A stretch of DNA of 64,000 nucleotides from Solirubrobacteraceae bacterium (GCA_049697735.1 JBAVWI010000020.1:7174-71173), one strand, 5' to 3'; numbered from the stretch's first letter, positions 24,135 to 61,853 are shown. Notes: generated by a model not told the origin, from the letters alone. Program-made: numbers and translations.

Positions 24135-24170
24135 ATCGTCTCCAGAGCGTTCAAACGGAGGACCGAAACC

Positions 24171-28847: not shown

Positions 28848-28967
28848 CCGCTCACCTCCCTCGGAGTCGACCTGGTCAACTCCGCTCCTGTTCATTGGTT
28901 CCAGCCTGGGGCGGGCGATTATGGGGCACGAATCTCGGCCTCATGAGAGGCCCCGGCCTGGTATAAA

Positions 28968-36367: not shown

Positions 36368-36419
36368 AGGGGGCAAGTGTGACCGCAAACCAAGCCCGAC
36401 ACAGAACCTAGCCTACCAC

Positions 36420-36523: not shown

Positions 36524-36598
36524 TTGGGACTCGAGTGAGAGGGATTAGGCACGCGCTCTCGTAGGGCCTGCCGCTGACCCGAAGGGAGCTGGTTAAGC

Positions 36599-38704: not shown

Positions 38705-38728
38705 GCGCCGAGACCAACCAGGAGAGAC

Positions 38729-41406: not shown

Positions 41407-42539
41407 GGGCGCTGCTGGATCCACAGGCTGTCATCGCGCGCTTTGGAGCGGACCTGTCCGGAACGATCCGGCGGGAGCGACGCACGGCGATGAAGTCTCC
41501 GCTGTTCGATCTTCCCGGACGCTCCTCGCTCGGGTTCGCGGTCACCTATGCGGTGGCTCCCGAGTTCATCGAGCGCCTCGAGACCGAGCTGACCGGGGCC
41601 GAGGCCGGCGCCCTGATGCGAGAGCCGCTGTCGCGTCCTTACTTCCTGCAACTTTTCATTCTCGTCGAGGGATACCTAGCCGGCCGCGAGCAGATCCTGC
41701 TTGACACCGGCGGAGCGTTTCGGACCCCGGCGGAGGCCGGTAGTGATCGGGAACGGACCGCGCGTGTGGTCTCGTGGTTCGCCGAGGCTTGCGAGGCCTA
41801 TCGCCAGGATGGGGAGCTGTTCCCCGGTGACGATGTACTTGGCCAGCCGGTGCTCTCCGAGCCGCAGCTCCAGAGTCTGCTTGAGGCGTCGGCGGTCGCG
41901 GCCTCGGACGCCGAGCGCGTGCGCAAGGCATTCGGACAATTGGAGCTGTATGCCATCACGCTGCACGGGGAGCAGCGCGACGGCATCTTTGACCACGGTC
42001 CCTACCGGGACAAGGTCCGCACCCTGGCCGTCCACGAGGTCAACGATCTCGACAACGACTATCTGCCATGGGCTGACGCGGAGACTCAGCTCGGCGTCGA
42101 TGCGGTCGGTGTTGTGCGGGCTTACCCCCCGGCGGTGGCGATGCGCTTTGACCTGTTCGGGACCATGAGTCCGGACCCGGTCACGGCCACCGGCCGGGAT
42201 CTCGCGCTGTGCAAACGCGACCGGGACGGTCTCGCGCCGCTAGACCTCAACGAGCTCGAAGCCCTGGCCGAGCGCGCGCAGCTGGCCACCACGATCCTGT
42301 ATCGCCGGTTCGCGGGCTGGGATCCCGCCTACCGCATCCGGTACGGGGCCGGTCAATTCCTCAACCATCTCGTGCCCTTTGCCCGCCTGGCGAGTAGCCC
42401 CGGACTCGAGTCCTGGCTTACTGCAGCCGGCGACGCGGCCGCCGAGGCTGAGATGCCCCGGCTTCAGCCTGGACAGCCGCGATCGATCTGGTCTCATTTC
42501 GCCACCACCGATCGCATCTTTACGCCGGTGGCCGAGTGA
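41403..42539 (+). CDS. hypothetical protein, no recognised domain
   Basis: 378-aa ORF. ATGA overlap with the swivel-domain stop, and its own stop overlaps the next start (TGATG). Good coding bias by eye. Confidence 0.6.
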   Translation: MRALLDPQAVIARFGADLSGTIRRERRTAMKSPLFDLPGRSSLGFAVTYAVAPEFIERLETELTGAEAGALMREPLSRPYFLQLFILVEGYLAGREQILLDTGGAFRTPAEAGSDRERTARVVSWFAEACEAYRQDGELFPGDDVLGQPVLSEPQLQSLLEASAVAASDAERVRKAFGQLELYAITLHGEQRDGIFDHGPYRDKVRTLAVHEVNDLDNDYLPWADAETQLGVDAVGVVRAYPPAVAMRFDLFGTMSPDPVTATGRDLALCKRDRDGLAPLDLNELEALAERAQLATTILYRRFAGWDPAYRIRYGAGQFLNHLVPFARLASSPGLESWLTAAGDAAAEAEMPRLQPGQPRSIWSHFATTDRIFTPVAE

Positions 42540-44629
42540 TGTCAGCGGCCACGGTCGAGTCCACCGCGGGCCTGCGCGCGCTACTCGAGCCTGGCGGCGT
42601 GGTCGTCATCGGGGCGTCAAACCGCGAGAGTAACCTGGGACTGCGCTTTACCCGGGGGCTCCAGCGCCACGGCTATGCGGGACCGGTTTCGGTGGTCAAC
42701 CGGCGCGCCGAGCCCGTTGACGGCATCCCGGGATACGAGTCACTGGAGCAGGTGCCGGGTACCGTCGACTTGGCGGTGATCGCGGTGAACGCGGGTGCGG
42801 TCGCCGAGGCCATCGATGCCTGCGGGGCGCGCGGGATTCGCGCCGCGATCGTCTTCACCTCCGGGTTCGGGGAAGTCGGCGGCGAGGGGATGATTCGCCA
42901 ACGGGAGATCGCCGCCCGAGCCCGGGTGGCCGGGGTCCGTCTGATGGGGCCGAACTGTGTGGGTTTTGTCAACGTTCCCAAACGCGTGTGCGCGATCGCC
43001 TCGGGCTTTGCCTTTCGCTCCGAGCTGCTTGCCGGGAGCTTGTCGGTCATCACCCAGAGCGGGGGCGTGGCCGGCCTGATCGGCGAGCGGGCGCAGGACG
43101 TCGGCATCGGGCTGTCGCACGTCATCTCGACCGGTAATGAGGCCGACGTCACCGCCGGAGAGCTGGTCGACTACCTCGTGGCCGAGGGGTCCACCCGGTC
43201 GCTGGCCTTGTACCTCGAGGCCGTCCGTGAGCCCCAGCGGCTCGGCGAGGCGCTCGTCCGGGCTCGGACGGCGGGCATCGGGGTGGCCATCTTCAAGGCC
43301 GGGGCGGGTGAGCGCACGGCGGCTGCCGCGGCTGCGCATACCGGGTCGGTGGTCGGTGATGACGCCGGCTTCGAGGCCTTCTGCCGGCAGGTCGGGGCTG
43401 TGCGGGTGCACGACCTTGACCATCTCTTTCTGGTCGCGCCGGTGATCGCTGCCCTGGACACTGCTGGGTCTCGGGTTGGGGTGCTGTCGATCTCCGGCGG
43501 GGCCGCGGTGGCCGTCGCCGACGCCTGTGAGCGCTGCGGCTTGGAGCTGCCGCCACTCTCCGAGGTAACCCAAGCGGGCGTTGGCGAGATGGTGCCGGGT
43601 TTTGCCTCCCGGCAGAACCCGGTCGACATCAGCGGGACCTTTGTCGTCGACATGCCCCAGTTCCAGCGCTCGTTGGAGATCCTCACCGGTGCCCCTGAAT
43701 TCGATGCCGTCGTCCTCGTCCAGACCGTCCATCCCGAGTCATTGGCGAATCGAGTCGCCGAGGTCATCATCGGCGGGGCCGACCCGACTCGGACCTCGAT
43801 CATGTGGGCGGCCGGGAACCAGACGCGCGCCGCCCGGCGCCGACTGCGCGAGGCCGGCTTCGGCGTTAGCGAAAGCCCGACAGCGTGCGCCATGGCCGTA
43901 GCCGCCGCCACCACGTCGCGGCGGCTCGAACCACCCGCCCTTGCTTGGCCCGAGTCTGGTGGCGCTACACCCGGGTGCGCCTCCGAGGCCCTCGAGTTGC
44001 TGGCCGCCCATTCAGTCCCGGTGGCACCGATGGAAGTCGTGACCACTGCCGCTGAGGCGAGCGCAGCGGCCGAGCGGTTGGGCTTTCCCGTTGTCGCCAA
44101 GGCTGATTTGAGCTCACTGGCGCACAAGAGCGAGCACGGTGGGGTCAAGCTCGGATTACGAGACGGCCGCGCGGTGCAAGCCGCCTTCGCCGAGCTCGAC
44201 GCTCGAGGCCTGGCCGGGGACGGAGTGCTGGTTCAGAAGGCGGTTTTGGGTAGCCGGGAACTCCTGGTTACAGCGGTTGTCGATCCCGTGTTCGGCCTCG
44301 CCCTGGCAGTCGGCTTCGGTGGGGTCCTGACCGAGGCCATCGGCCGGGGTGCGCTGCTGCTCCCGCCGCTCACCCCCAGCGGTCTTGCCGCGGCGCTGGA
44401 CAGTGCCGGGCTGACTCGCCTCGTGGGGTCATTCCGAGGGGCGGCGGCGATCGATCTCGGCCAGTTGCTGGCCCTCGGCGGGGGGCTGCTCGAGGCAGCC
44501 GCCCAGCTTGGCGGCCTGCGCCATCTGGAGCTCAACCCGGTGATCGTGGGCGATGACGGAAGCGTGTGCGCGGTCGATGCGCTGATCGATACCAACGTCG
44601 AAATGAGGCCCGATGCTCCAAGCGGTTGA
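42539..44629 (+). CDS. ADP-forming acyl-CoA synthetase (fused CoA-binding / succinyl-CoA-synthetase-like / ATP-grasp; acetate--CoA ligase ADP-forming family)
   Basis: VVVIGASNRESNLG, VNRRAEPVDGIPGY, DLAVIAV, MGPNCVGFVN, AAAAHTGSVVGDD (phosphohistidine loop), plus a C-terminal ATP-grasp (GFPVVAKADL...GGVKLGL). Confidence 0.85.
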   Translation: MSAATVESTAGLRALLEPGGVVVIGASNRESNLGLRFTRGLQRHGYAGPVSVVNRRAEPVDGIPGYESLEQVPGTVDLAVIAVNAGAVAEAIDACGARGIRAAIVFTSGFGEVGGEGMIRQREIAARARVAGVRLMGPNCVGFVNVPKRVCAIASGFAFRSELLAGSLSVITQSGGVAGLIGERAQDVGIGLSHVISTGNEADVTAGELVDYLVAEGSTRSLALYLEAVREPQRLGEALVRARTAGIGVAIFKAGAGERTAAAAAAHTGSVVGDDAGFEAFCRQVGAVRVHDLDHLFLVAPVIAALDTAGSRVGVLSISGGAAVAVADACERCGLELPPLSEVTQAGVGEMVPGFASRQNPVDISGTFVVDMPQFQRSLEILTGAPEFDAVVLVQTVHPESLANRVAEVIIGGADPTRTSIMWAAGNQTRAARRRLREAGFGVSESPTACAMAVAAATTSRRLEPPALAWPESGGATPGCASEALELLAAHSVPVAPMEVVTTAAEASAAAERLGFPVVAKADLSSLAHKSEHGGVKLGLRDGRAVQAAFAELDARGLAGDGVLVQKAVLGSRELLVTAVVDPVFGLALAVGFGGVLTEAIGRGALLLPPLTPSGLAAALDSAGLTRLVGSFRGAAAIDLGQLLALGGGLLEAAAQLGGLRHLELNPVIVGDDGSVCAVDALIDTNVEMRPDAPSG

Positions 44630-45664: not shown

Positions 45665-46258
45665 ATGGCACCGACCCTGGAAGCGGAATTCCGCGTTCTG
45701 CACTCTCTTCGCATCAAGGGGGCAGCGTCCGCCGACGCGGTAGCGCGCTTGGCGGGCGACGCCGAGGTAACCGATGAGCTCGCCGTGCTGGAGCAGGAGG
45801 GGTGGGTCCTACGCCGCTCCACCACCTCGACTCTGGTCTTCGCCCTGACCGCGAGTGGACGTGAACGTCATGGCCAGCTATTGGCCGGCGAGGGCGATGA
45901 TTCAAGCCGGGCGGTTCTCGCTGCCGCCTATGACGGCGCCTTCCGGCCGCTGAACCGGACCTTCAAGGCCCTGTGCCTACGCTGGCAGCAGGCCGACGAG
46001 CACTTCGAACTCCTCGAAGAGGTCATCAGCACTCATGACCAGATCGATGCCTTCCTGGCCGACGCTGCTGAGCAGCGGCTGCGCTTCAGCGTCTACCGCG
46101 TGCGGCTGGACGCACTGGTCGAGCGGGTCCAGGACGGCGACACGGAAGCCTACGTGGCCCCGCTTGGTGAGTCCTACCACAACGCCTGGTTTGAGCTCCA
46201 TGAGGACCTGATCATCACCCTCGGACGCAGCCGGGCCGAAGAGGAGAACGCGGCGTGA
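45665..46258 (+). CDS. hypothetical protein with possible N-terminal winged-helix region
   Basis: 197 aa. LHSLRIKGAASADAVARLAGDAEVTDELAVLEQEGWVLRR...ALTASGRERHGQLL looks MarR/wHTH-like. The remainder is helical and unassigned. Confidence 0.5.
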   Translation: MAPTLEAEFRVLHSLRIKGAASADAVARLAGDAEVTDELAVLEQEGWVLRRSTTSTLVFALTASGRERHGQLLAGEGDDSSRAVLAAAYDGAFRPLNRTFKALCLRWQQADEHFELLEEVISTHDQIDAFLADAAEQRLRFSVYRVRLDALVERVQDGDTEAYVAPLGESYHNAWFELHEDLIITLGRSRAEEENAA

Positions 46259-46381: not shown

Positions 46382-46906
46382 ATGGCCATAACCAAGTTCG
46401 ATCACATCGCCCTCATCGTCGATGATCTCGATGCTTCGCTCATGCACTTTCGCCAGATCTTCGACTTCGAGGACAGCGAGATGATCTATGAGCGCGACTA
46501 CAACGACGTCAACCCCGAGACCGGGGCGAGTGACGTCATGCACACGGCGCTGTTCCCGGTCGGGGAGGTCTACTTCGAGCTCATCGAGCCGGTGAGCGAC
46601 GGTCCGATGAAGAAGTTCCTCGAGCGTACCGGCGGCGGTATCCACCACATCGGGATTACCAGTGATGACCTCCGCGAGGAGTGGAAACGGCACGCCAGCG
46701 CCGACGTGGGCGTGGTTGGTGACAAGCCGCGTGTCGATCAGTTCCATGTCTCCTACTGGTTCCTGCACCCGAAGAACAACCACCGCGTGCTGTTTGAGGT
46801 CGACGCCGCCTGGGCCAAGACCAGCGTCTCTGACATGACGCCGATCGAGCCGACCCCCGACTGGGATTCCGAGCTCGAGCTGACCAGCAGCAGCGCCGAG
46901 GGATGA
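46382..46906 (+). CDS. VOC family protein, methylmalonyl-CoA-epimerase-like
   Basis: 174 aa. FDHIALIVDDLDASLMHF...YFELIEPVSDGPMKKFLERTGGGIHHIGI. Confidence 0.75.
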   Translation: MAITKFDHIALIVDDLDASLMHFRQIFDFEDSEMIYERDYNDVNPETGASDVMHTALFPVGEVYFELIEPVSDGPMKKFLERTGGGIHHIGITSDDLREEWKRHASADVGVVGDKPRVDQFHVSYWFLHPKNNHRVLFEVDAAWAKTSVSDMTPIEPTPDWDSELELTSSSAEG

Positions 46907-48237
46907 CCGTCCTCGCCCACACTGACCACGATGCGGTGGTCGTCGGCGGGGGTGTCGGGGGTCTGGCGGCCGCTGCCGAGCTCGTGCTGGCCGGTCGGCG
47001 TCCGCTCCTTCTCGAGCAGTCAGATCGTCTCGGGGGTCGCTTCTCGACCATTGAGAAGGACGGCTACCGGCTGCCGACCGGGGCGGTGGCGATCGAGACT
47101 GCAGGTCCGTTTTATGAGATGTTCGGCCGGCTCGGAATCGACGCCGACCTTCGCGTGCCCGACCCGCCCGTGATGATCCATGTCCGGGGCCGCAACCTCC
47201 AGCCGGGCGCCGCGGTCTGGAAGCACATGATGAAGCGAGTGACCAAGGCGGCCGGCGCGGTCGCCGAGGGGCTTAGCAAGGCGCGCTCCGGGAGTGACGA
47301 GGGTTCCGAGACGCTCGAGCACTGGGTGCTTCAGTACACCAAGAGCAAGACTCTGCTGAGCCTGTTTCAGTCGCTGGCTGCCTCGATCTTCACGGTTAAC
47401 GCCGATGAGCTTCCGGCGAGTGCCTTCTTCCGACTGCTGCGTGAAACCGGGGGCTACAAGAGCTTCGGTTACGCGCCGCGAGGAAATCGAGAACTCGCCG
47501 ACGCCATCGGGGAGGCGATTGTCGAGCGTGGTGGCGAGGTCCGTCTGTCCACGTGTGTCGAGGCGGTGAGGATGGCCGAGGGACAAGCCGACGCGGTCTT
47601 GGCTCGGGGTCCCGGCGGTCAGGCGGAGTGGCTCCCGACCCGTGCCGTGATCTCCAACGCCGGGCCCCGGGCGACGGCCCGGCTCTTTGCCGAGACGCCG
47701 GCGGCCGATGACTTCGCGCGCCGGGTCAGCGACGTCGCCCCGAGCTCGATGCTGGCCCTGGCCTTCTCGACTCAGGAGCCGGTGGTCGAGCCGCCCGGGA
47801 TCTGGGCCTTCACCGACACGCAGCGGATGTGCAACCTGGCCAATCTCACCGCTACGTGTCCCGAGCTGGCCCCCGAGGGCCGCAGTCTCTACGAGGCCTA
47901 CTCGGTGCCCCGGCCTTCGGTCGGCGGCAACTTCGACGTCGAGCAGGAGCGCAAATTGCTCGAGCAGGATCTGCTCAAGTTCGTGCCCGGGTTTGCCGGA
48001 GCCGAAACCGTTCTCTTCAAGGTCATGCGCGGGGATGTGCCCGCCCAGCAGTGTCGTCCTGGGTATGACCCGGACATCGTTACCCCAGTGGGAAACGTGC
48101 TCGACGTCGGCGATGGGGTCAAGCCCTATGGTTGGATCGGAACCACGGCCTGCGCGGAGACCGCTCGCCGCGCCGTAGAGCAGCTCCTATCTGGGGCTCT
48201 GGCCAGTCCGTCTGGCGTTGAGCGGGTCGTAGCATGA
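46903..48237 (+). CDS. FAD/NAD(P)-dependent oxidoreductase (phytoene-desaturase/amine-oxidase fold)
   Basis: DAVVVGGGVGGLAAAAELVLAGRRPLLLEQSDRLGGR dinucleotide-binding motif. 444 aa. Confidence 0.8.
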   Translation: MTVLAHTDHDAVVVGGGVGGLAAAAELVLAGRRPLLLEQSDRLGGRFSTIEKDGYRLPTGAVAIETAGPFYEMFGRLGIDADLRVPDPPVMIHVRGRNLQPGAAVWKHMMKRVTKAAGAVAEGLSKARSGSDEGSETLEHWVLQYTKSKTLLSLFQSLAASIFTVNADELPASAFFRLLRETGGYKSFGYAPRGNRELADAIGEAIVERGGEVRLSTCVEAVRMAEGQADAVLARGPGGQAEWLPTRAVISNAGPRATARLFAETPAADDFARRVSDVAPSSMLALAFSTQEPVVEPPGIWAFTDTQRMCNLANLTATCPELAPEGRSLYEAYSVPRPSVGGNFDVEQERKLLEQDLLKFVPGFAGAETVLFKVMRGDVPAQQCRPGYDPDIVTPVGNVLDVGDGVKPYGWIGTTACAETARRAVEQLLSGALASPSGVERVVA

Positions 48238-49175
48238 GTGGCCGTCGGACCGTCCTGACCACGGCCGCCGCGGCTGTTGAGCAGATCCCACCAGGCGCGA
48301 CGATTGGCTTCGGCGGTCTCATGAACACGTGTCATTCGATGCCCGTGGTCCGGGAGATCATCCGCCGCGGGGTCGGCGACCTGCACGTGGTTGGGATTGC
48401 CTCGGGACTCGAGGTGGACATGCTGATCGCCGCGGGGCTCGTCCGGCGGGTCTCAACCCCAACCGTGTCCGCGGAGACCGTGCAGGCGATCGCGCCCGCG
48501 TTTCGCCGCGCCGCGGAGGCGGGCGAAATCGTCGTTTGGGACTGTGACGAGGGAATGATCTACGCCGCGCTTCAGGCCGCGGCGCAGCGCGTCTCGTTCG
48601 CGCCGTGGCCGGTGGGAATGGGCTCGTCCTATCCCGAGGTCAACGACGGCATGGAGATCATCGAGTCGCCCTATACCGGTAAGCCGGTGGTCGCCATCAA
48701 GGCGATCCCCATCGACTTCGGATTCGTGCACGCCGCCTGCTCGGATCCCTACGGGAACGTACAGGTGATCGGCGGAGGGTTCGGGGACCGGGCCGTGGCT
48801 CGCGCCTCGCGCGAGGTGTTCTGCACCGTGGATCGAATCATCCCCAACCACGAGGTGAGGCGAAATCCGTTGGCCACCTCACTCCCCGGCATGGATGCAG
48901 TCGTCCATGCGCCATTCGGATCGCATCCGTTCGCATCTCCCGGTCACTACGTCAACGACGTGCCGTTCATGCGCGAATACCTGGCGGCGGCCGACCGCTG
49001 GCTGCGTGCCGATGACCGCGGTCCGCTCGACGCCTGGTTCGACGCGTGGGTGCGCGCAGTCCCGACGCACTGGGATTACCTCGATAAGCTCGGGCCCGAA
49101 CGTCTGTGGTCGCTCGAGGAGGGCTTGCACTACGACGATCTGGCTATCCCCGCGCTCGAGGAGACGATTGCATGA
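48234..49175 (+). CDS. CoA-transferase-like subunit A (glutaconate-CoA-transferase/IpdA-like), pair 1
   Basis: IPPGATIGFGGLMNTCHSMPVVREIIRRGVGDLHVVG...DCDEGMIYAALQAAA...DFGFVHAACSDPYGNVQV. Confidence 0.8.
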   Translation: MSGRRTVLTTAAAAVEQIPPGATIGFGGLMNTCHSMPVVREIIRRGVGDLHVVGIASGLEVDMLIAAGLVRRVSTPTVSAETVQAIAPAFRRAAEAGEIVVWDCDEGMIYAALQAAAQRVSFAPWPVGMGSSYPEVNDGMEIIESPYTGKPVVAIKAIPIDFGFVHAACSDPYGNVQVIGGGFGDRAVARASREVFCTVDRIIPNHEVRRNPLATSLPGMDAVVHAPFGSHPFASPGHYVNDVPFMREYLAAADRWLRADDRGPLDAWFDAWVRAVPTHWDYLDKLGPERLWSLEEGLHYDDLAIPALEETIA

Positions 49176-49966
49176 GCGAGGATTCCTACTACGTCGACGA
49201 GCTCCGCGCTTGTCTGCTCTCCCGTGAATTTGAGGATGGCGAGCGCGTCTTCCTCGGAGCCAACGTCAACATAGGCCGGGGAGCCCTCCTGCTCGCCCAT
49301 CTGCTCAGGGGTCCCAACATGCGCGTCATGCTCGGGCTGTCGTGGACGAACCTCAGCGACCACCGAGAGGTCGGGCTGCACCCGGACTCAACCGACTTTC
49401 GCGACGCCCGCTGGGCCGAGGCTTACGTAAGCCTGGACACCATGATCAACAGCTACCGCTTCTTCTCGACGACCTTCGTGATCAGCGCGCTGCAGGTCGA
49501 CGGCTTTGGCAACTCCAATCTGATCGGCCTGGGCGACGACCACCGCCGGCCGCGGCTGCGAGGTCCGGGGGCGATCGGGTCGGTCAGCTCGACGGCCTAC
49601 TGTGACCGGTTCTACATCACGCCTCCGCGCCACACCCAGGACATCTTCGTGCAGCGGTGCGACTTCGTCTCCTCGGTCGGCTGGGGTTCCGGCGGTGCCG
49701 ACGCCCGCGACAAGCTGGGCCTCCCCGGCGGCGGACCCAAGCTCTGCGTCACCCCGATCTGCGTGATGGATTTCGAGGAGGAGACCAAGGCCATGCGCTT
49801 GCGTTCGGTGCATCCGGGGCATTCCGTCGAGGAGGTGGTCGACAATACGGGCTTCGAGTTGATAATCCCCGATGAGGTGCCGGATACTGTGCCCCCCCAA
49901 CCGGATGAGCTCCAACTGTTACGCAACGTGATTGATCTCCAGGGCCTACTGCGCCAGGCTGCCTGA
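49172..49966 (+). CDS. CoA-transferase-like subunit B (IpdB-like), pair 1
   Basis: 264 aa from ATG 49172 (ATGA overlap). VDELRACLLSREFEDGERVFLGANV...ISALQVDGFGNSNLIGLG...VTPICVMDFEE...LRSVHPG. No SENG motif seen. Confidence 0.78.
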   Translation: MSEDSYYVDELRACLLSREFEDGERVFLGANVNIGRGALLLAHLLRGPNMRVMLGLSWTNLSDHREVGLHPDSTDFRDARWAEAYVSLDTMINSYRFFSTTFVISALQVDGFGNSNLIGLGDDHRRPRLRGPGAIGSVSSTAYCDRFYITPPRHTQDIFVQRCDFVSSVGWGSGGADARDKLGLPGGGPKLCVTPICVMDFEEETKAMRLRSVHPGHSVEEVVDNTGFELIIPDEVPDTVPPQPDELQLLRNVIDLQGLLRQAA

Positions 49967-49968
49967 CC

Positions 49969-50616
49969 TTGGCCAGCGCGGCGTCAAAGGGCAAGCCTGC
50001 CGCCAGGCGGCCGATGTCGCCCCGCCGCCGGGAGGTTCTCGATGAGGCCGCCCGGCTTTTTCACGAGCGGGGTTACATGGGTACGAGCATGGACGACATC
50101 GCCGATGCCGTCGGTCTAACCAAGGGCACGCTCTATCACCACTTCCCGAGCAAGGCGGTGATTCTCGGGGAGATCTACGAAGAGGCGGTCAGCTTCGTAC
50201 TCGCGCACATGTCAGAGCTCGAGCAGCAGGGATCGGCGACCGCCGCGGTGCGCTCCATAGTCAGGGCGATCGTCGAGCTGATCGGCGAGCATCGCTATCA
50301 CGTCACGGTCTTCTACCAGGAGATGCGCTGGATCGGCGAGTGGCTTCCGGCCAAGGACGCCCGGGCCATTCGCAAGCAGATCCGGGAGTACATCGACAGC
50401 GTGGAGAGGGTGATCCAGCGCGGCATCGACGAGGGGGACTTCCGGCCCACCGACGCTTCGGTGGCCGCCTATGCACTGATCGGCATGGCCTCCTGGACGT
50501 ATCAGTGGTTTGAGCCGAGCCGACGTCTGTCGGCCGAGGCGGTCAGCGAGCTGCTGTCGCAAACCTTCCTGGAGGGGCTCGTCGTCCCGGCCGGACGCGG
50601 TCCGGCCAAGGGCTGA
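49969..50616 (+). CDS. TetR/AcrR family transcriptional regulator (candidate regulator of the supercluster)
   Basis: VLDEAARLFHERGYMGTSMDDIADAVGLTKGTLYHHFPSKAVIL. Starts 2 nt after the preceding stop, so it is co-transcribed. Start may be ATG 50014. Confidence 0.88.
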   Translation: MASAASKGKPAARRPMSPRRREVLDEAARLFHERGYMGTSMDDIADAVGLTKGTLYHHFPSKAVILGEIYEEAVSFVLAHMSELEQQGSATAAVRSIVRAIVELIGEHRYHVTVFYQEMRWIGEWLPAKDARAIRKQIREYIDSVERVIQRGIDEGDFRPTDASVAAYALIGMASWTYQWFEPSRRLSAEAVSELLSQTFLEGLVVPAGRGPAKG

Positions 50617-50624
50617 GCCGCCGC

Positions 50625-51227
50625 CTAATCGGCCTGCGTGTCGGCGCTGTTCTCGCGCCAGATGCGATATCGGCAGCGCGGCGCGCCGTCTCCCATCCAG
50701 GTGAGCCGGTCGGCACCGAGGTCTTCGTCGACGGTCTTGGCGATCTGGTCCGCCCACTGTCGGCAGCCCCGCTCACACAGTCCGTCAGTGATCGGGATTC
50801 CGGCGAACCTCGGCTTCTGCAGGGCATTGCCAAAGGCACAGTTGACGTCCAGCTCGGCCCCGTCGGGGGTCTCGCTGAGCACGGCGACGTCAGACCCCTC
50901 GGCCTGGAACTCGGCCTGCATGACCTGAGAGACCAGAGCCGCGCCCTCGCCGGGGAGCGAGAACCGGCGGCGGTAGGCCTCGGCCAGCATCGGGGTCGCC
51001 TCATCGGCGACCTCGGCGGCGATCCGGTTGGCAGCGTCCCACCCGTACAGCTCGCCGATTCGGCGGTAGACGGCGAAGTACTGGTGCTTAAAGACGTTGT
51101 GGAGCACCGCGTAGCGCTCCTCGAGGGGAAGCTCGACCGTCGAGGGGCCTTCGAGGTCGATGATCGGGAAGCGCTGGGGCGCTTGATCGGGTGGGGTCGG
51201 AGACGATTCAGGTGACATGAGGCCCAT
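50625..51227 (-). CDS. L-2-amino-thiazoline-4-carboxylate-hydrolase-like (ATC_hydrolase family) protein
   Basis: 200 aa. Helical N-part and C-terminal Cys-containing ...DGLCERGC...GDGAPRCRYRI, resembling the family's C-terminal RCDFRF-type motif (from memory). Confidence 0.45.
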   Translation of the reverse strand: MGLMSPESSPTPPDQAPQRFPIIDLEGPSTVELPLEERYAVLHNVFKHQYFAVYRRIGELYGWDAANRIAAEVADEATPMLAEAYRRRFSLPGEGAALVSQVMQAEFQAEGSDVAVLSETPDGAELDVNCAFGNALQKPRFAGIPITDGLCERGCRQWADQIAKTVDEDLGADRLTWMGDGAPRCRYRIWRENSADTQAD

Positions 51228-51236
51228 TGTAACCTA

Positions 51237-51248
51237 CCAACTGGTTGG
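51237..51248. promoter_or_regulatory. operator-like palindrome CCAACTGGTTGG (site 4)
   Basis: Fills the centre of the 24-bp gap between divergent start codons 51227 (-) and 51252 (+). Context is AACCTACCAACTGGTTGGTTGATG. Confidence 0.6.
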
Positions 51249-51251
51249 TTG

Positions 51252-52349
51252 ATGAGATACGATTGCCTCGTGCAACATCTTCGCCTCGGTCTCAATCTGG
51301 CTATGACCCACTGGGACAGCGGGCCCGAGCCCAACGTCGGACTCGCGCAAACCGCCGAGCGGCTGGGATTCGATTCGGTCTGGACCGAGGAGGCCTACGG
51401 CTCGGATGCGGTATCGCCGTTGGCCTGGGTGGCGGCGCTGACCCAACGCATCGCGGTTGGCTCGGCGGTGTGGCAGATTCCTGCCCGGACGCCCGCGATG
51501 GCGGCGATGACGGCGGCCACGCTGGACAAGCTGTCGGGCGGACGCCTGCGCGTGGGACTCGGCGTCTCGGGGCCTCAGGTGGTGGAGGGCTGGCACGGCC
51601 AGCCGTTTGCCCGGCCGGTGACGCGCACGCGAGAATACGTGGACATCATGCGCCTCATCCTGGCGCGGGAGGAGCCGGTCAGCTATCACGGCCGTGAGTA
51701 CGAGCTCCCCTACAGCGGCGACGCCGGGCTCGGCCTCGGACGGCCGCTCAAGCTGATCCTCCATCCGGAACGGAGGATCCCGTTCTACCTCGGTGCCTTG
51801 GGCCCCAGGAACATCGCCCTTACGGCCGAGATCGCCGATGGTTGGCTGCCGATCTTCTACGCCCCGCGGTGTGCCGAGGACGTGTTCGGTGAGTCACTGG
51901 CCGAGGGTTTCGCGCGCGCGGGGGAGGACAAGGCCCCGGGGCGCGGCTTCGACGTCGCACCGGTGGTGTCAGTGGTCGTCGATGACGATCCGGCGGTCGC
52001 CAGGCTCCCGGTCAAGCGCCGGATCGCGCTCTACATAGGCGGCATGGGGGCGGCCAACAAGAACTTCTCCAACCAGTTGATCCGGCGTTTCGGGTACGCC
52101 GAAGCCGCCGAGGAAATCCAGGCCCGCTTCCTCAGCGGTGACCGCGATGGCGCGGTACAGGCCGTTCCCGACGAGCTCATCGACGACGTGGCTCTGTGCG
52201 GCCCGCCCGCTCGCATCGCCGCGCTGCTGGAGGCCTGGCGAGCCAGCGACGTGACCACGCTGATCCTGGACACCGATGACGTCAACGCGATGCAGGCCAT
52301 GGCCGATCTGGTCCGGTCACCGGTAGCCACGCCTTCCGAGACGGCGTGA
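51252..52349 (+). CDS. LLM-class (luciferase-like) F420-dependent oxidoreductase
   Basis: LRLGLNLAM...AERLGFDSVWTEEAYGSDAVSPLAW...LSGGRLRVGLGVSGPQVVEGWHG. Start ATG 51252 (TTG 51249 also possible). Confidence 0.85.
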   Translation: MRYDCLVQHLRLGLNLAMTHWDSGPEPNVGLAQTAERLGFDSVWTEEAYGSDAVSPLAWVAALTQRIAVGSAVWQIPARTPAMAAMTAATLDKLSGGRLRVGLGVSGPQVVEGWHGQPFARPVTRTREYVDIMRLILAREEPVSYHGREYELPYSGDAGLGLGRPLKLILHPERRIPFYLGALGPRNIALTAEIADGWLPIFYAPRCAEDVFGESLAEGFARAGEDKAPGRGFDVAPVVSVVVDDDPAVARLPVKRRIALYIGGMGAANKNFSNQLIRRFGYAEAAEEIQARFLSGDRDGAVQAVPDELIDDVALCGPPARIAALLEAWRASDVTTLILDTDDVNAMQAMADLVRSPVATPSETA

Positions 52350-53185
52350 GCTCGGCCAAGGTCATCGATCTCGACGCGGCCGCTGCGCTGGTTCCCGACG
52401 GTGCCCGCATCGCCTTCGGCGGTGGCGGCGCGGCGATGCGGCGCCCGATGGACTTTGCCCGCGCGCTGGCCCGGCGAAAAGCGACCGGCCTACACGTGCT
52501 CCACATGCTCGGCGGTCTCGAGACCGATCTCCTGATCGGCGCCGGCTGCGTGACGGCTACGAGCTGCGCCTACGTTGGGCTGCTCGAGCACGGGCAGGCG
52601 CCCAACTTCCAGCGCGCCGCTCGCGAGCGGATGCTGCAGGTCAACGAGTACAGCGAGTTCATGTACATCGCATCTCTGCGGGCGGCGGACATGGGCCTGC
52701 CCTTCATCCCCTGGAAGACCCCGTGGGGCTCGGACATGATCGCGAGTCTCGGTCTCCGCAAAGTCGTCAACCCGTACACCGGCGACGCGCTGCTCGCCGT
52801 GCCGGCCGCCCAGATCGACGTGGCCGTGATCCAGGTCCGGCGAGCGGACGCCGACGGCTACGTCGAGATGCCCGTCGAGCCCGATCTCATCTGGGATTAC
52901 GACACGCTCGTCGCTCGGGTCGCCGCGACCACGATCGTCTGCGCCGAGGAGATCGGTCCGGTCAGCGATCCCGCCCGCGTGGCCCTCATCGGCCGCGAGG
53001 TCACCTGGGTGGTCAGCGCTCCCGGCGGCGCGTGGCCGACCGGCCTGCATCCCCTCTACCAGCCCGACATCACGCATCTGGTCACCCAGTACCTGCCCGC
53101 CGCGCTTGCCGGCTCTGACCAGTTCGGGGAGTACCTCTCCAGGATCGAGGATGGCTCGAGGGCACTGCTTGGATCCGATGGCTGA
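52346..53185 (+). CDS. CoA-transferase-like subunit A, pair 2
   Basis: VPDGARIAFGGGGAAMRRPMDFARALARRKATGLHVLH...EFMYIASLRAAD...DVAVIQVRRADADGYV. GTG overlaps the LLM stop (GTGA). Confidence 0.75.
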   Translation: MSSAKVIDLDAAAALVPDGARIAFGGGGAAMRRPMDFARALARRKATGLHVLHMLGGLETDLLIGAGCVTATSCAYVGLLEHGQAPNFQRAARERMLQVNEYSEFMYIASLRAADMGLPFIPWKTPWGSDMIASLGLRKVVNPYTGDALLAVPAAQIDVAVIQVRRADADGYVEMPVEPDLIWDYDTLVARVAATTIVCAEEIGPVSDPARVALIGREVTWVVSAPGGAWPTGLHPLYQPDITHLVTQYLPAALAGSDQFGEYLSRIEDGSRALLGSDG

Positions 53186-54032
53186 ACTCGAGTACAGCGT
53201 CGACGAGCTCATGTGCGTACTGATGGCGCGCGAGATCCGCGACGGCGAGTGGGTGAACCACGGCGCGGTGGTGCCGCTGGCCGGCGCCGCGCTGATGCTC
53301 GCCAAGCAGACCCACGCGCCGAACCTCGACTTCTTCTACCTGGGGACCGTGTTCAACTCGATCAGCCCTGCCGAGCCCAACCTTGCGCGTCTGATGACCG
53401 AACCCGAGCTCGCCTACCGGTCCTCGCGCGCCCTGATCTCCCATCAGGACATCCTCAACTTCACCCTCCGCGGCAACTGCAGCTTTCAGTTCCTGCGCCC
53501 GATCCAGATCGACGGCGAGGGCAGCGTCAACGTAAGCCTGATCGGCTCGCCCTCGGCACCGCGCTACCGCTTCCATGGCATCGCCGTGGCGGACGCGATG
53601 ATCCTGGTCAAGCGGGTCTGCCTGTACGTGACCGAACACGATCCTCGGGTGCTGGTGGATAAGCTGGGCTTCCGCACCGGCGCCGGCCATGTCCAAGCCG
53701 ACTGCTGGCGCCGGCCCCTCGGTGCGCCCGGAGGTGGTCCCGTCTCGGTGGTCACGCCGCTGTGTGTGTTCGATTTCGAAACCGACGACGGGCGGGCGCG
53801 GCTGCGCTCGGTCCATCCCGGCGTCACGGTCGAGCACGTGATCGAGAAGACCGGGTTTGGCTTTCCCGTATCCGACCAAGTGCCCGAGTCCGAGGCTCCC
53901 ACGGCCGACGAGCTTCGGGTCCTGCGCGAGGTCGTGGATCCGATGGAGACACGCAAGATGGAGTTCAAGCAGTGGCGCGCGGCTGTTCAGGCGCGCTTGA
54001 ACCAGGCCGGCGCAGATGCCCACTCGCGCTGA
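53178..54032 (+). CDS. CoA-transferase-like subunit B, pair 2
   Basis: 284 aa from ATG 53178. VDELMCVLMAREIRDGEWVNHGAV...LRPIQIDGEGSVNVSLIG...VTPLCVFDFET...LRSVHPG. No SENG motif. Confidence 0.72.
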   Translation: MAELEYSVDELMCVLMAREIRDGEWVNHGAVVPLAGAALMLAKQTHAPNLDFFYLGTVFNSISPAEPNLARLMTEPELAYRSSRALISHQDILNFTLRGNCSFQFLRPIQIDGEGSVNVSLIGSPSAPRYRFHGIAVADAMILVKRVCLYVTEHDPRVLVDKLGFRTGAGHVQADCWRRPLGAPGGGPVSVVTPLCVFDFETDDGRARLRSVHPGVTVEHVIEKTGFGFPVSDQVPESEAPTADELRVLREVVDPMETRKMEFKQWRAAVQARLNQAGADAHSR

Positions 54033-54909
54033 CCTGGTCCTCGACGAGGAGGCTGCGCTGGACTTCCTCAAGGACGGCATGACTGTGGCCATCGGCGGCT
54101 TCAACACCGCGGCTCATCCGATGATCCTGGTTCGCGGCATCGTCCGTCGTGGCCTGCGCCGCCTGCGGGTAATCGGTGGGACCATCGCCGGGCTCGAGCT
54201 GGATCTGCTGATTGGGGCCGGCTGCGTGGATGAAGTCGTCACCTCCTCGGTCACCGGAGAGGCGCTGGCGGCGATCGGCCCGTTCTTTCGCGCTGCCGCC
54301 GAGCAGGGTGCGGTGCGGGTCTGGGAGAGCGACGAGGGGATTCTCTACGCCGGGTTGCGGGCTGCCGGGCAGGGACTTCCGTTCTTGCCCTGGAAGGCTG
54401 GGGTCGGGTCCTCGCTACCCGAGGTCAACCCTGACCTGAAGGTGTTTGAGGATCCGATCGGCGGCGAGCTGCTGCTGGCCGTCCCGGCCCTCAAACCCGA
54501 TGTGGCCATCATCCACGTCGCCCGCGCAGACCACCACGGCCTCGGCCAGCACATCGGCTCCGGCTTCGGAGACCGGCTTCTACACCGCGCCGCTGACCGC
54601 ACGATCATCACCACCGAGAAGGTGGTGCCCAACGAGACCATCCGCGCTGCGCCCGAGCTGACTTCGATCCCCTATGGCGACGCCGTGGTCCGCGCGCCCT
54701 GGGGTGCCCACCCGTTCTCGAGTCCGGGCCACTACCTCGTCGACGAGCTCCACCTGGAGGAGTACCTGCAGGCTGCGGGCGCCTCGCGCCGTGGCGATCA
54801 AGCCCCCTTTCAGACTTACCTGGAGCGCTACATCACCGGTCCGGCCTCCCACGCGGACTACCTGGAGGCCGTGGGGATCAAGCGCCTGCTCGAGTTGGAG
54901 GAGTGGTGA
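54016..54909 (+). CDS. CoA-transferase-like subunit A, pair 3
   Basis: LKDGMTVAIGGFNTAAHPMILVRGIVRRGLRRLRVIG...ESDEGILYAGLRAAG...DVAIIHVARADHHG. Confidence 0.78.
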   Translation: MPTRADLVLDEEAALDFLKDGMTVAIGGFNTAAHPMILVRGIVRRGLRRLRVIGGTIAGLELDLLIGAGCVDEVVTSSVTGEALAAIGPFFRAAAEQGAVRVWESDEGILYAGLRAAGQGLPFLPWKAGVGSSLPEVNPDLKVFEDPIGGELLLAVPALKPDVAIIHVARADHHGLGQHIGSGFGDRLLHRAADRTIITTEKVVPNETIRAAPELTSIPYGDAVVRAPWGAHPFSSPGHYLVDELHLEEYLQAAGASRRGDQAPFQTYLERYITGPASHADYLEAVGIKRLLELEEW

Positions 54910-55703
54910 GCCCACCGGATGAGGCCTTCAGCCGCGACGAGCTGCTCGCCGCCTACGTGGCCGGCCAGATCGAGAACGGCGACCGCCTCTTCGTCGGCGC
55001 CAACCTGCCGGTCCCACGGGCCGGCAATCTGCTCGCTCACCTCACCCACGGACCCGACATCAAGGTTTCCGTGGGGATGGTGAGCACCAACCTGCTCAAC
55101 GAGCCGATCCTCGAGCCGTTGAAGTTCTCCACCGACTATCGCATGGCCCGCTTCGCCGAGGCGGTTGTGGTCCACAACGACATCTTCGACGCTCCGCGCA
55201 AGGTCTCCGACCTGTTTTTCGTGGGCGGAATCCAGATCGACCGCTACGGCAATACGAACCTGATCGGGTTGGGCGAGGACTACGCACGGCTGCGCTTTCG
55301 CGGGCCCGGCACACTCGGCACCGCGTCAATGGCCTACTACGCCAAGCGCTATTACATCTACGCCCAGCAGCACTCCCCGCGCGTCTTCGTCGAGCGATGC
55401 GACTTTGTGTCCGTGTTCGGCCATGGCGAGGGCGCGGATCACCGGGCGCGGCTGGGCCTTGATCGCTTCAATCGCGGCCCGACCTCGGTCATCACCCCGC
55501 TGGCCATCCTCGACTTCGAGACGCCCGACCATCGCATGCGGATCCAGAGCGTTCATCCGGGAGTCAGCGTCGATGACGTGCATGCCGCCACCGGGTTCGA
55601 GCTCGAAGTCCCGCCGGATGTTGCGGTCACGCCGGAGCCGACCGCGGAGCAGATCGCGCTGCTGCGCGAGCGCATCGACGTGGAGGGTCTCCTGCGCAGG
55701 TAA
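54903..55703 (+). CDS. CoA-transferase-like subunit B (IpdB-like), pair 3
   Basis: RDELLAAYVAGQIENGDRLFVGANL...VGGIQIDRYGNTNLIGLG...ITPLAILDFETPDHRMRIQSVHPG. No SENG motif at the expected position. Confidence 0.78.
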   Translation: MVSPPDEAFSRDELLAAYVAGQIENGDRLFVGANLPVPRAGNLLAHLTHGPDIKVSVGMVSTNLLNEPILEPLKFSTDYRMARFAEAVVVHNDIFDAPRKVSDLFFVGGIQIDRYGNTNLIGLGEDYARLRFRGPGTLGTASMAYYAKRYYIYAQQHSPRVFVERCDFVSVFGHGEGADHRARLGLDRFNRGPTSVITPLAILDFETPDHRMRIQSVHPGVSVDDVHAATGFELEVPPDVAVTPEPTAEQIALLRERIDVEGLLRR

Positions 55704-55824: not shown

Positions 55825-56901
55825 ATGGAATCTTCTGGAGAGCAGACGGTGGGCCTGGACCCGCAGCCGGCCGGATTGGCTGGCGGCGGAGCCCCGACGG
55901 CGGCCGCGCCTTCGCCGCCTCCACGGACCGACGACCGGCTCCCCGGGGAGAGCCCCTGGCGCCGGCGCGTCACTCGGCTCGGCGATCGCTACGGGGTCAT
56001 TCTCACCTTCATCGCGATCATCGTCGTGTTCTCGATCCTGGACCCGTCGGGCTTCCCGACCTGGCGCAACCTCCAGACGATCCTAACCCAGACCGGGACG
56101 GTGATTCTGCTGGCCATCGGGCTCACCTTTGTGCTCGCGGCCGGAGAGTTCGACCTCTCGTTCCCCTACGCGTTCGGACTGGTCAGCGGTGTACTGGTGA
56201 TCGCCTTGACCAAGTGGCACATGGGCACGTTCGAGGCGGTGGCGATCGGTCTGGCGTGTGGTGTGCTCACCGGAGTCATCAACGGGTTGCTGGTCGCCAC
56301 CCGGCGGGCCTCGTCCTTCATCCTGACCCTTGCCGCCGGCTCGGCCTACACCGGTCTCATGTACGCCGTTGCCGGTCAGGCGCCGATCATCAACGGCATT
56401 CCCAACAACTACGTCAACATCGCCAACCGGTCGGTCCTCGGCTTTAGCACTGTGGTCGTGCTGGCGCTGGTCACGGCGATCCTCGCCGCGGTGGTCCTCC
56501 GGGCCACGGTCTTCGGCCGCCACGTCCAGGCCACCGGCTCCAACGCCGAGGCGTCGGCCATCGCCGGCGTCCGCGTCAACCGTGTCCGGATCGGCGCCTT
56601 CGCCGTGTTGGGGTTGTTCGTTGCCGCGGCGGCGATCATCGATACCTCGACCTCGGCTGCCTTCTATCCGAGCGCCGGACAGGGCTACTTCTTGCCGCCT
56701 TTCGTCGCCGCCTTCGTAGGCACGTCCGTCCTGGGCCGGGGGCGGTTCAATGTGCTCGGGACGGTCATCGGTGCTTTGTTCATCGACACCCTCCAGGTCG
56801 GTCTGATCCAGCAGAACGCGCCCTCCTGGGTGATCTACGTGGTGCAGGGAGTCGTGCTGGCCATGGCGGTCATGGTCACTGCCCAGAAGCGCCGTACCTG
56901 A
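55825..56901 (+). CDS. ABC transporter permease, CUT2 (ribose/xylose-type) family
   Basis: 358 aa from ATG 55825 (GGGAGGGAAGAGGAG ribosome-binding site). Multi-pass membrane protein: ...LLAIGLTFVLAAGEFDLSFPY...GFSTVVVLALV... The listed 498-aa ORF overlaps the preceding gene. Confidence 0.82.
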   Translation: MESSGEQTVGLDPQPAGLAGGGAPTAAAPSPPPRTDDRLPGESPWRRRVTRLGDRYGVILTFIAIIVVFSILDPSGFPTWRNLQTILTQTGTVILLAIGLTFVLAAGEFDLSFPYAFGLVSGVLVIALTKWHMGTFEAVAIGLACGVLTGVINGLLVATRRASSFILTLAAGSAYTGLMYAVAGQAPIINGIPNNYVNIANRSVLGFSTVVVLALVTAILAAVVLRATVFGRHVQATGSNAEASAIAGVRVNRVRIGAFAVLGLFVAAAAIIDTSTSAAFYPSAGQGYFLPPFVAAFVGTSVLGRGRFNVLGTVIGALFIDTLQVGLIQQNAPSWVIYVVQGVVLAMAVMVTAQKRRT

Positions 56902-56917: not shown

Positions 56918-58453
56918 GTGACCGCTACACCCACCGCCTCGAGCGACCCCGGATCTGCCGACACGCCTGGGCGCGTTCCCGTGCTGAGCACGGTGGGCGT
57001 GTTTAAGAGCTACGACGAGGTCCAGGCGCTGCGCGGGGTGGACTTCTCCCTCTACCCCGGCGAGGTCGTCGGCCTGGTGGGTGCCAACGGAGCCGGAAAG
57101 TCGACGCTGATCAGGATCCTGACCGGACTCGTCGCGCCCGATGCCGGCGAGGTGATGGCCGAAGGCACACCGATGCGACCGACCATCCAGGCAGCTCGGG
57201 CCGCGGGCGTCACCGCCGTGCATCAGGAGCTCAATCTGGTGCCCGCTGCGACCGTGGCCGAGAACGTCTTGCTCTGGAATCTGCCCCGCCGGGCCGGAAT
57301 GGTCAGCCGCAGGGAGATGCGCCGCCGGGCCGGCGAGGTGGTGGCCCAGCTCGGCGTCGAGCTTCCGCTCGACATGCCGGCGGCGGAGCTCACCGCGGTC
57401 CAGCAGCGACTCGTGATGGTGGCGGCCGCGCTCTCCCAGAATGCCAAGGTGCTGATCCTCGATGAGCCGACCGCGTCGCTTCCCGCAGACGAGGCCCAGC
57501 ACGTGCTCAAGGTGGCACGGGAGCTGCGTCGCCTAGGCAAGTCGGTCGTGTTCGTCTCGCACCGTCTCGACGAGGTCGTGGCGGTGGTCGACCGTGCCGT
57601 GGTCATGCGCGACGGGCGCGTGGTCCGAGAGCTCGCGCCGGGTGAGGTCGACATCGAGACGATGATGGAGCTGATCGGAGCCAAACGGGTGGCCGCGCTC
57701 GATCGCCGGCTCAGACATCCGATCAGCAACCGCACCGAAGTCATTCTCTCCGCCCGCGGCGTATACGGAAGCCGCGTCCGCGAGCTCGAACTCGACGTCC
57801 GCGGAGGTGAGATCCTCGGCGTCGCCGGTCTGGTCGGAGCCGGCCGCAGCGAGCTCCTGCGCCTGCTGGCCGGAGTGCAGCGCCACCGAGCGGGCGAGCT
57901 CCTCCTACGAGGCAAGTCGTGGAGTCGCGACGCAGCTCGGGGCGAGGTCGGATATGTGGGGGAGCGGCGTGGTGACCATCTCTTTGCCGACTTCGACGTG
58001 AGTTCGAACGTCAGCCTGCCCAGCCTGGGGCGCTTCAAGCATTGGCGCTGCCTACTGGACGCAAAGCAGGAGCACAACTCGGTGGCCGATGTCCTCGGGC
58101 GAACCGGCGTCAAGGGGGGCCCACGTGACACGATGGGATCCCTCTCGGGAGGCAACAAGCAGAAGGTCCTCCTCGCGCGCTGGTTGCTGGTCGAGTCCAA
58201 GGTCCTGATCCTGGACGAGCCGACCGCCGGGGTCGATGTCGGGGCTCGGGCTGAATTGCACGCTCTGCTGCGAGAGATCGCCGATGCCGGCGGAGCCGTC
58301 GTGGTGGCGATCTCCGACCCCAAGGAGCTCCTTGCGCTGTGTAACCGGGTGATCGTCCTCAGAGAAGGTCGGCTCACCTTGGATACGGTGGCGCCGTTTC
58401 ACGAGGGCGAGATCCTGGCCGCGTCGTACGCTGATCTCTCGGTCACGGCCTGA
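56918..58453 (+). CDS. sugar-type ABC transporter ATP-binding protein (duplicated ATPase, RbsA-like)
   Basis: 511 aa. Walker A GANGAGKST, a second cassette LSGGNKQKVLLARWL / ILDEPTAGVD, and a first-cassette signature degenerated to AVQQRLVMV. Confidence 0.85.
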   Translation: MTATPTASSDPGSADTPGRVPVLSTVGVFKSYDEVQALRGVDFSLYPGEVVGLVGANGAGKSTLIRILTGLVAPDAGEVMAEGTPMRPTIQAARAAGVTAVHQELNLVPAATVAENVLLWNLPRRAGMVSRREMRRRAGEVVAQLGVELPLDMPAAELTAVQQRLVMVAAALSQNAKVLILDEPTASLPADEAQHVLKVARELRRLGKSVVFVSHRLDEVVAVVDRAVVMRDGRVVRELAPGEVDIETMMELIGAKRVAALDRRLRHPISNRTEVILSARGVYGSRVRELELDVRGGEILGVAGLVGAGRSELLRLLAGVQRHRAGELLLRGKSWSRDAARGEVGYVGERRGDHLFADFDVSSNVSLPSLGRFKHWRCLLDAKQEHNSVADVLGRTGVKGGPRDTMGSLSGGNKQKVLLARWLLVESKVLILDEPTAGVDVGARAELHALLREIADAGGAVVVAISDPKELLALCNRVIVLREGRLTLDTVAPFHEGEILAASYADLSVTA

Positions 58454-61798: not shown

Positions 61799-61853
61799 TT
61801 GGTGAATTTTGGACGGACGGACAGACGGACTTCGAGGGTTGGAAAGGAGGGCG

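Follow-up and report, generated by a model that had tools for sequence, protein, structure and literature searches.

CoA-transferase-like gene pairs without the beta-subunit catalytic glutamate in a Solirubrobacteraceae bacterium

Introduction

What can three pairs of coenzyme A (CoA) transferase-like genes do, if all of them have lost the catalytic glutamate of the beta subunit? The question arises from a stretch of DNA of a Solirubrobacteraceae bacterium (GCA_049697735.1 JBAVWI010000020.1:7174-71173), 64,000 nucleotides (nt) long and with a G+C content of 65-69%, which we will call the window. The pairs, A1B1, A2B2 and A3B3, are found at positions 48234-55703. Their alpha subunits have a glutamate at the position of Glu105 of IpdA, as in IpdAB. 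The explanation which we favour, with a confidence a little above even, is that pairs of this kind act on acyl-CoA without any CoA transfer, within a catabolic operon.

To our knowledge, only two offshoots of the class I CoA-transferases without the beta-subunit glutamate have been characterised: IpdAB, a virulence-linked hydrolase of a steroid ring, and AibAB, a decarboxylase. Enzymes of this type are therefore already known. What is new here is a clade with a distinctive signature of two residues, which can be tested, and an unusual operon with three pairs.

The three gene pairs

We will start with the genes themselves, all of them on the + strand. The first pair is formed by A1 (48234..49175, 313 amino acids, aa), which matches Pfam PF01144 (1e-20) and, among PDB sequences, GctA (1.9e-35) and IpdA (8e-30), and by B1 (49172..49966, 264 aa), whose ATG start overlaps the stop of A1 in a common ATGA at 49172-49175. 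The second contains A2 (52346..53185, 279 aa, with a GTG start) and a divergent beta subunit, B2 (53178..54032, 284 aa from the ATG at 53178; the public gene call starts at 53151). The third contains A3 (54016..54909, 297 aa) and B3 (54903..55703, 266 aa from the GTG at 54903, or 265 aa from 54906). The public gene calls for A1 and B3 also use starts other than those taken here. The remaining overlaps are 8 nt for A2/B2, 17 nt for B2/A3 and 7 nt for A3/B3 (4 nt if B3 starts at 54906). With overlaps of 4-17 nt the six genes are therefore translationally coupled.

All six open reading frames match the Pfam family CoA_trans (PF01144) above its gathering score, with values of 5e-19 to 3e-28 for the A subunits and 1.5e-5 to 3e-10 for the B subunits. 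The first-pass annotation of this DNA, which had described three A/B pairs with overlapping starts and stops, was right in this respect. The pairs are paralogous heteromers of the glutaconate-CoA-transferase branch of class I CoA-transferases: their A subunits have 31-42% identity with each other and their B subunits 36-43%. Public records list them as subunits of glutaconate CoA-transferase or simply as CoA-transferase. Soil-metagenome runs also contain the DNA of 48234-55703, and one of them gives a 13.65-kb contig which codes for exactly A3.

The catalytic position of the beta subunit

A profile was built from 23 B-type sequences and aligned over the full length to GctB, IpdB and AibB. A single column of this profile contains Glu54 of GctB (V-E-S-G), Cys56 of AibB, which is the residue that varies in the C56S/A variants, and the Gly of IpdB (T-D-G-E). 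According to published work the counterpart of GctB Glu54 is Gly57-beta in RHA1 IpdB (PMC5380842) and Cys56-beta in AibB (PMC7756340). The placement of the column is valid, since the alignment and both published correspondences agree three ways.

In this column we find Gly55 in B1 (codon 49334-49336), Leu55 in B2 (codon 53340-53342) and Gly58 in B3 (codon 55074-55076); B1 and B3 thus have Gly as in IpdB. The catalytic glutamate is missing from all three B subunits, as the first-pass annotation had claimed, and the alignment with GctB and IpdB which it had proposed gives no conserved catalytic Glu. It had also placed the only ENG string, QIENGD of the third B subunit, in an earlier segment of the protein; in our alignment this string falls on QIKNGQ of GctB, upstream of the catalytic site. 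The other strings which it quoted for the B subunits are in place as well (MLGLSWTNL, FYLGTVFNS, VSVGMVSTN, TP(I/L)(C/A)(V/I)xDFE and SVHPG), with the exception of the GN motif in B2: this protein reads IQIDGEGSVN, so that it has GS and not GN in the QxDxxGNxN motif.

Both subunits have the class I fold, and the (S)ENG / ESG motif with the catalytic glutamate is absent from the beta subunits. These retain the QxDxxGNxN CoA-binding motif, in its GS variant in the case of B2, and the conserved N-terminal Glu. The lost residue is the bearer of the acyl- and CoA-enzyme intermediates; therefore standard ping-pong CoA transfer is most likely impossible, and we infer that the pairs have no transferase activity.

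The glutamate of the alpha subunit

The PDB chains 6co6_A (REMDEGM) and 6coj_A (REMDAGM) differ at one residue, and the title of entry 6COJ reads "IpdAB E105A". The column of IpdA Glu105 is therefore fixed. Crowe et al. reportedly found in 2018 that this residue is the essential catalytic base of IpdAB. The three A subunits of the window have a glutamate in it: Glu106 in A1 (codon 48549-48551, motif C-D-E-G-M), Glu104 in A2 (codon 52655-52657, motif Y-S-E-F-M) and Glu107 in A3 (codon 54334-54336, motif S-D-E-G-I). At the same position GctA and the SCOT-type transferases have Gln; for AibA the aligners disagree between Gly and Asp. The likeness to IpdAB is thus stronger than the first-pass annotation saw, as three out of three A subunits keep this residue; with identities of 25-35% it does not extend to orthology.

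A two-residue signature across the family

A scan with one genome per species gave 80 loci; together with two further loci, L001 and L002, they contain 95 homologues of A and 93 of B. The GctB Glu54 column is without Glu in all 93 of the latter. In the IpdA Glu105 column Glu is found in 98 of 102 aligned A sequences; the four which lack it are GctA, AibA and two short subunits of the SCOT type, the last two with Gln in the classical P-Q-G-T motif. An independent alignment of 24 A homologues has Glu107 of A3 as an invariant residue.

We also searched 1.84 billion cluster representatives with the B profile. At least 313 clusters (at 50% identity) score E<=1e-30 against it, and Glu is present in the Glu54 column of 12 among the best 150 of the cluster representatives matched by the profile. 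Proteins in which A and B are fused into a single chain have the two positions together: all five without the beta glutamate have the alpha glutamate (P0273, P0287, P0295, P0318 and P0364), and both of those with the beta glutamate have Asn or His at the alpha position (P0355 and P0371). The fused proteins and the homologue counts make the signature therefore reciprocal: this family and IpdAB have an alpha Glu and no beta Glu, and transferases have a beta Glu and no carboxylate in alpha.

This pattern bears on the possibility that the pairs are genuine CoA-transferases which use another nucleophile, such as the Glu of the alpha subunit. Their CoA-transferase fold is complete, the motifs for CoA binding (QxDxxGNxN and the conserved N-terminal Glu) are retained, GctAB is their best or joint-best structural neighbour, and the public annotation as glutaconate CoA-transferase subunits agrees with such a role. 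On the other hand, we know of no class I transferase which works without the beta glutamate, and the cluster already has a CoA ligase of its own. The relatives which keep the beta Glu lack the alpha Glu, which argues for a change of mechanism and not for a spare nucleophile. Furthermore, neither IpdAB nor AibAB, the two characterised relatives without the beta glutamate, is a transferase (PMC5380842, PMC7756340). We consider CoA transfer by these pairs very unlikely.

Members of the family occur in Actinomycetota, Acidobacteriota, Betaproteobacteria, Rokubacteria and Asgard archaea. In the last group, pairs without the beta glutamate are present in metagenome-assembled genomes of Jordarchaeia and Freyarchaeota (loci L056, L057, L063 and L066), where they adjoin thiolase/DUF35, BKACE and OYE-type reductase genes. 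Among the carriers which we found, one alone is in culture, Xanthobacter sp. KR7-65 (locus L067).

Relation to proteins of known structure

The nearest solved structures by sequence are GctAB (1POI), IpdAB (6CON, 6CO6) and AibAB (the 5MZW series). A1 has 31% identity with GctA and 35% with IpdA, and B1 has 29% with GctB and 25% with IpdB. The values are similar for A3 (35% with IpdA, 32% with GctA) and B3 (32% with GctB, 29% with IpdB). In the case of A2 and B2 the best references are AibA (33%) and AibB (31%). In neighbour-joining trees of each subunit the distances to GctAB, IpdAB and AibAB are all deep and much alike (0.67-0.81), and for this reason we rejected a nesting of the window pairs inside the IpdAB clade. 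The phylogeny which the first-pass annotation had proposed thus gives no affiliation to IpdAB; the references are about equidistant.

AlphaFold2 models were compared with Foldseek. The B1 model (pLDDT 78) has TM scores of 0.81 with GctB, 0.76 with IpdB and 0.75 with AibB; the A3 model (pLDDT 89) has 0.87 with GctA and 0.85-0.86 with IpdA.

The neighbouring genes

The pairs are part of a cluster with several other genes which are, unless stated, on the + strand. Just upstream of A1 there is a VOC-fold protein (46382..46906, Pfam Glyoxalase_4), similar to methylmalonyl-CoA epimerase, with 73 bits against TIGR03081, which is below the cut-off of 115. It is translationally coupled to a FAD oxidoreductase of the amine-oxidase / CrtI (phytoene desaturase) type (46903..48237), whose stop overlaps the A1 start. 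Between the first and second pairs we find a TetR-family regulator (49969..50616), which is probably the repressor of the cluster, and an F420-dependent LLM oxidoreductase of the Rv3520c subfamily (51249..52349; TIGR03559, 420 bits with a cut-off of 335), whose stop overlaps the A2 start. The family matches confirm the neighbours which the first-pass annotation had named: the epimerase-like VOC protein, the FAD enzyme of amine-oxidase/CrtI type and the F420 LLM enzyme of Rv3520c type.

Further upstream, Pfam identifies the A and B proteins of a hydantoinase/oxoprolinase-family pair (36578-38704 and 38705-41062). It comes closest to caprolactamase and acetophenone carboxylase, with scores far below the cut-offs in both cases, and the pair is predicted from its sequence to be an ATP-dependent lactamase or ketone carboxylase. 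It is followed by an ADP-forming acyl-CoA synthetase (42536..44629) with CoA-binding, succinyl-CoA-ligase-like and ATP-grasp domains, and by a first protein of the Rv3169 family (DUF7064, 44613-45656). Downstream of B3 there is an ABC importer of the sugar (CUT2) type, with a permease (55825-56901), a double ATPase (56918-58453) and a Peripla_BP_4 binding protein (60523-61629, - strand). A second Rv3169-family (DUF7064) paralogue (58459-59496) follows the ATPase, and an APH-type kinase lies between it and the Peripla_BP_4 gene. For three proteins Pfam, NCBIfam and PDB give no match: unk384 (384 aa, 41385-42539), unk197 (197 aa, 45665-46258) and unk200 (200 aa, 50625-51227, - strand).

A second hydantoinase A gene (61806-63998) runs off the end of the window, and its B gene is next on the public contig, so that two hydantoinase-family systems flank the cluster. 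Just upstream of the cluster there are two large proteins with a PPDK_N (ATP-binding) and a PEP-utilizer mobile domain (26319-28940 and 34223-36412, both on the - strand), which are similar to phosphotransferases such as PEP synthase, rifampin phosphotransferase or phenylphosphate synthase. Two ECF-type sigma factors with C-terminal extensions of ~320 aa (22058-23035, - strand, and 24102-25052, + strand) flank a NAD-dependent epimerase gene. A trio similar to the Liu genes of leucine/isoprenoid catabolism is found at 568-3338, 45 kb from the pairs: an HMG-CoA-lyase-like gene (568-1527, - strand), an acyl-CoA dehydrogenase (1505-2668, - strand) and a TetR gene (2712-3338). The 64-kb window has no steroid-catabolic (KstR2-type) gene, and a steroid pathway was rejected on this ground. 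Nothing was seen which points to a mobile-element or phage origin.

Conservation of the cluster

The closest named relative is a locus (L003) of an uncultured Actinomycetes metagenome-assembled genome, OY970316.1. It is colinear, at 47-77% amino-acid identity, with a cluster of ~20 kb which starts with HydB, the hydantoinase B gene, and ends with the second Rv3169-family gene; the colinear set includes HydB, the ADP-forming ligase, TetR, LLM, both Rv3169-family genes and the homologues of unk384 and unk197. The order of genes is A3B3-VOC-FAD-A1B1 in L001 and LLM-VOC-TetR-A3B3-x-HydAB(fused)-ACAD-A1B1 in L002, where ACAD is an acyl-CoA dehydrogenase. An unk200 homologue adjoins A3B3 in L002, and the TetR regulator is retained in L002 and L003. 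In all three loci A1B1 and A3B3 are kept together, accompanied by the VOC protein. The two pairs are therefore parts of the same pathway, and neither is a redundant copy. The order amine oxidase-A-B is kept in L001, L003 and ~19 acidobacterial loci.

When we looked for the accessory genes in the surroundings of 82 related loci, the pairing of A and B was the one feature of general occurrence. Only close actinobacterial relatives have the hydantoinase, LLM and Rv3169-family genes. Elsewhere the commonest neighbours are a thiolase with DUF35, acyl-CoA dehydrogenase, SDR, CoA ligase, enoyl-CoA hydratase, OYE-type reductase and BKACE. The betaproteobacterial loci contain TctC, AMP-ligase, SDR, A-B, a citryl-CoA-lyase-like gene, BKACE, SDR and a FAD_binding_2 gene, and the Asgard-archaeal loci contain DUF35, thiolases, A-B, BKACE and OYE. 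In Acidobacteriota we find VOC, amidohydrolase, enoyl-CoA hydratase, two thiolases, DUF35, acyl-CoA dehydrogenase, amine oxidase-A-B, OYE-type reductase, TetR, acyl-CoA dehydrogenase, SDR and VOC; these loci end with a second A-B pair, which adjoins an HMG-CoA-synthase-like/DUF35 gene. The loci in other taxa are acyl-CoA-processing settings throughout. Their commonest neighbours would use the products of C-C hydrolysis. By analogy, the thiolases in particular would suit an enzyme which releases a beta-keto thioester, in the way in which IpdAB releases one for the thiolase FadA6 (PMC5380842, PMC6678751).

A different possibility is that some or all of the pairs, above all A2B2, are decarboxylases of the AibAB type, which would take CO2 off a glutaconyl-CoA-type (vinylogous beta-carboxy) thioester without CoA transfer. 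The second acidobacterial pair has its HMG-CoA-synthase-like neighbour just as aibAB lies near mvaS, the best solved reference for A2 and B2 is AibA/AibB, and a VOC protein similar to methylmalonyl-CoA epimerase fits with the chemistry of dicarboxyl-CoA compounds. Nevertheless AibA has no Glu at the Glu105 position, which is occupied by Glu in A1, A2, A3 and nearly the whole family. The cluster has neither an HMG-CoA synthase nor an AibC-like gene, and the whole window has no HMG-CoA-synthase-like gene. Glu72 of AibB is also unmatched in B1 and B3, which have Thr in its column (motif S-T-D-F/Y-R), while B2 is ambiguous (T-E-P-E). The mismatch with Cys56 and Glu72 of AibB weighs little, because Cys56 is dispensable in AibAB (PMC7756340). 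Decarboxylation of this type by some or all of the pairs is rather unlikely, but it is a serious alternative, especially for A2B2.

The reaction and the pathway

Non-transferase chemistry on acyl-CoA substrates is likely. Each pair would bind an acyl-CoA in the active-site cleft of the CoA-transferase fold, and the alpha glutamate would act on the acyl moiety as a general base or acid, in a chemistry of enolates. Possible reactions are decarboxylation, isomerisation and, on the model of IpdAB, hydration followed by retro-Claisen hydrolysis of a C-C bond; CoA would stay in place. Among these we favour hydrolytic C-C cleavage. The first-pass annotation was correct in its statement that IpdAB opens a ring and does not transfer CoA (PMC5380842, PMC6678751). 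Ring opening by the pairs of the window is something which we infer, and the stepwise opening of a cyclic or polycyclic acyl-CoA, which had been proposed for them, finds no support: no result shows that the substrate is cyclic or polycyclic, and such an opening is one possibility among several non-transferase chemistries.

In the operon the substrate would be imported by the ABC system. The ATP-dependent enzyme of the hydantoinase family might then open a lactam or carboxylate a ketone, and the ADP-forming ligase would make the CoA thioester. The CrtI-like flavoenzyme, the F420 LLM enzyme and the epimerase-like VOC protein could adjust its oxidation state and stereochemistry before the three A/B pairs react, and the operon would probably be controlled by TetR.

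A simpler role would be that of acyl-CoA thioester hydrolases, in which the alpha glutamate activates water on the thioester and not on a C-C bond, or even that of non-catalytic scaffolds. A change of nucleophile can give a thioesterase, as is apparent in the title of PDB entry 9cq2, "CtfAB E46D active site mutant hydrolase"; the E54D variant of GctB reportedly behaves likewise. Yet three conserved paralogous pairs of thioesterases beside a CoA ligase would make a futile cycle, and the neighbours in other taxa act downstream on CoA esters. In the case of scaffolds, the strong conservation of many residues across phyla is against them. The probability of either role is small. A simple thioesterase, like a transferase with another nucleophile, is less likely than C-C cleavage or decarboxylation.

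Several points weigh against our preferred explanation, that is, action on acyl-CoA without CoA transfer by means of an IpdAB-like glutamate. The window pairs are about as near to the true transferase GctAB as to IpdAB in identity, in the neighbour-joining trees and in structure. The B1 model has a pLDDT <50 at residues 56-60 and 69-90 (~49337-49441 in the window), and its low-confidence residues are only those around the loop which bears the nucleophile in true transferases; this loop may need the partner subunit or a bound substrate to become ordered. No thiolase, enoyl-CoA hydratase or DUF35 gene is found in the 64-kb window, and a sugar-type ABC transporter is no pointer to a lipophilic alicyclic substrate. 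Such a transporter, and the lack of a thiolase, speak against the picture of a simple "polycyclic lipid". Finally, literature searches on homologues without the beta glutamate found no paper on this clade.

A broader proposal may be built on the same data, and we regard it as unlikely. The family would be a phylum-spanning set of cofactor-free, IpdAB-like C-C hydrolases in which the catalytic carboxylate has moved from the beta to the alpha subunit. The three pairs would act in sequence on one substrate, activated first by a ketone carboxylase or lactamase of the hydantoinase type and then by the CoA ligase, and this would be a new oxygen-independent opening of carbocyclic or heterocyclic rings in soil.

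The arrangement of IpdAB, with an alpha and no beta glutamate, marks a large uncharacterised family beyond the steroid pathway. Its members are routinely annotated as "glutaconate CoA-transferase", and a rule based on two residues would correct many of these annotations. The signature points to new steps of acyl-CoA C-C cleavage or decarboxylation in the turnover of soil carbon. The actinobacterial operon with three pairs, which is kept in at least two genomes, is a defined set of genes for expression and testing.

Comparison with known systems

IpdAB (Rv3551/Rv3552, also known in RHA1 and as ScdL1L2 of Comamonas; PDB 6CON, 6CO6, 6CO9 and 6COJ) is a retro-Claisen hydrolase which cleaves the ring of COCHEA-CoA. 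Like the window pairs it has two subunits with the CoA-transferase fold and a replaced beta nucleophile, which is Gly in IpdB, B1 and B3, and it has no CoA-transferase activity, with Gly57-beta in place of the glutamate (PMC5380842, PMC6678751). The alpha Glu of the Glu105 position lies in a D-E-G motif common to IpdA, A1 and A3, and the beta subunits share a S-(V/L)-H-P-G motif. However, the identity is only 30-35% for A and 25-31% for B, so that they are not orthologues, and the Glu which follows Gly in IpdB (D-G-E-A) is absent from the B subunits of the window. The window has three pairs instead of one. It lacks the steroid genes of the KstR2 type nearby (echA20, ipdC, ipdF, fadA6, fadE30-33), and the partners are a hydantoinase, an ADP-forming ligase, a CrtI-like FAD enzyme, an F420 LLM enzyme and a sugar-type ABC transporter.

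The Myxococcus xanthus enzyme AibA/AibB (PDB 5MZW-5N03), which decarboxylates 3-methylglutaconyl-CoA, belongs to the same branch and is also a non-transferase without the beta glutamate, with Cys56-beta in its place (PMC7756340). It is the nearest solved relative of A2B2 (33% and 31% identity). It differs from the window pairs by Cys56 and Glu72 of AibB and by the lack of Glu at the Glu105 position of AibA; the context of the aib operon, with HMG-CoA synthase and AibC, is absent from the cluster.

GctAB of Acidaminococcus fermentans (PDB 1POI) is the best or joint-best match, with 31-32% identity for A and 29-32% for B and TM scores of 0.81-0.87. Its subunits have the same sizes as those of the window, including the C-terminal helical extension of the A subunit, and the QxDxxGNxN and D-x-R motifs are in common. 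The difference lies in the two residues of the signature: GctAB has the catalytic Glu54 in GctB (V-E-S-G) and Gln at the Glu105 position of GctA, while the window pairs have the opposite.

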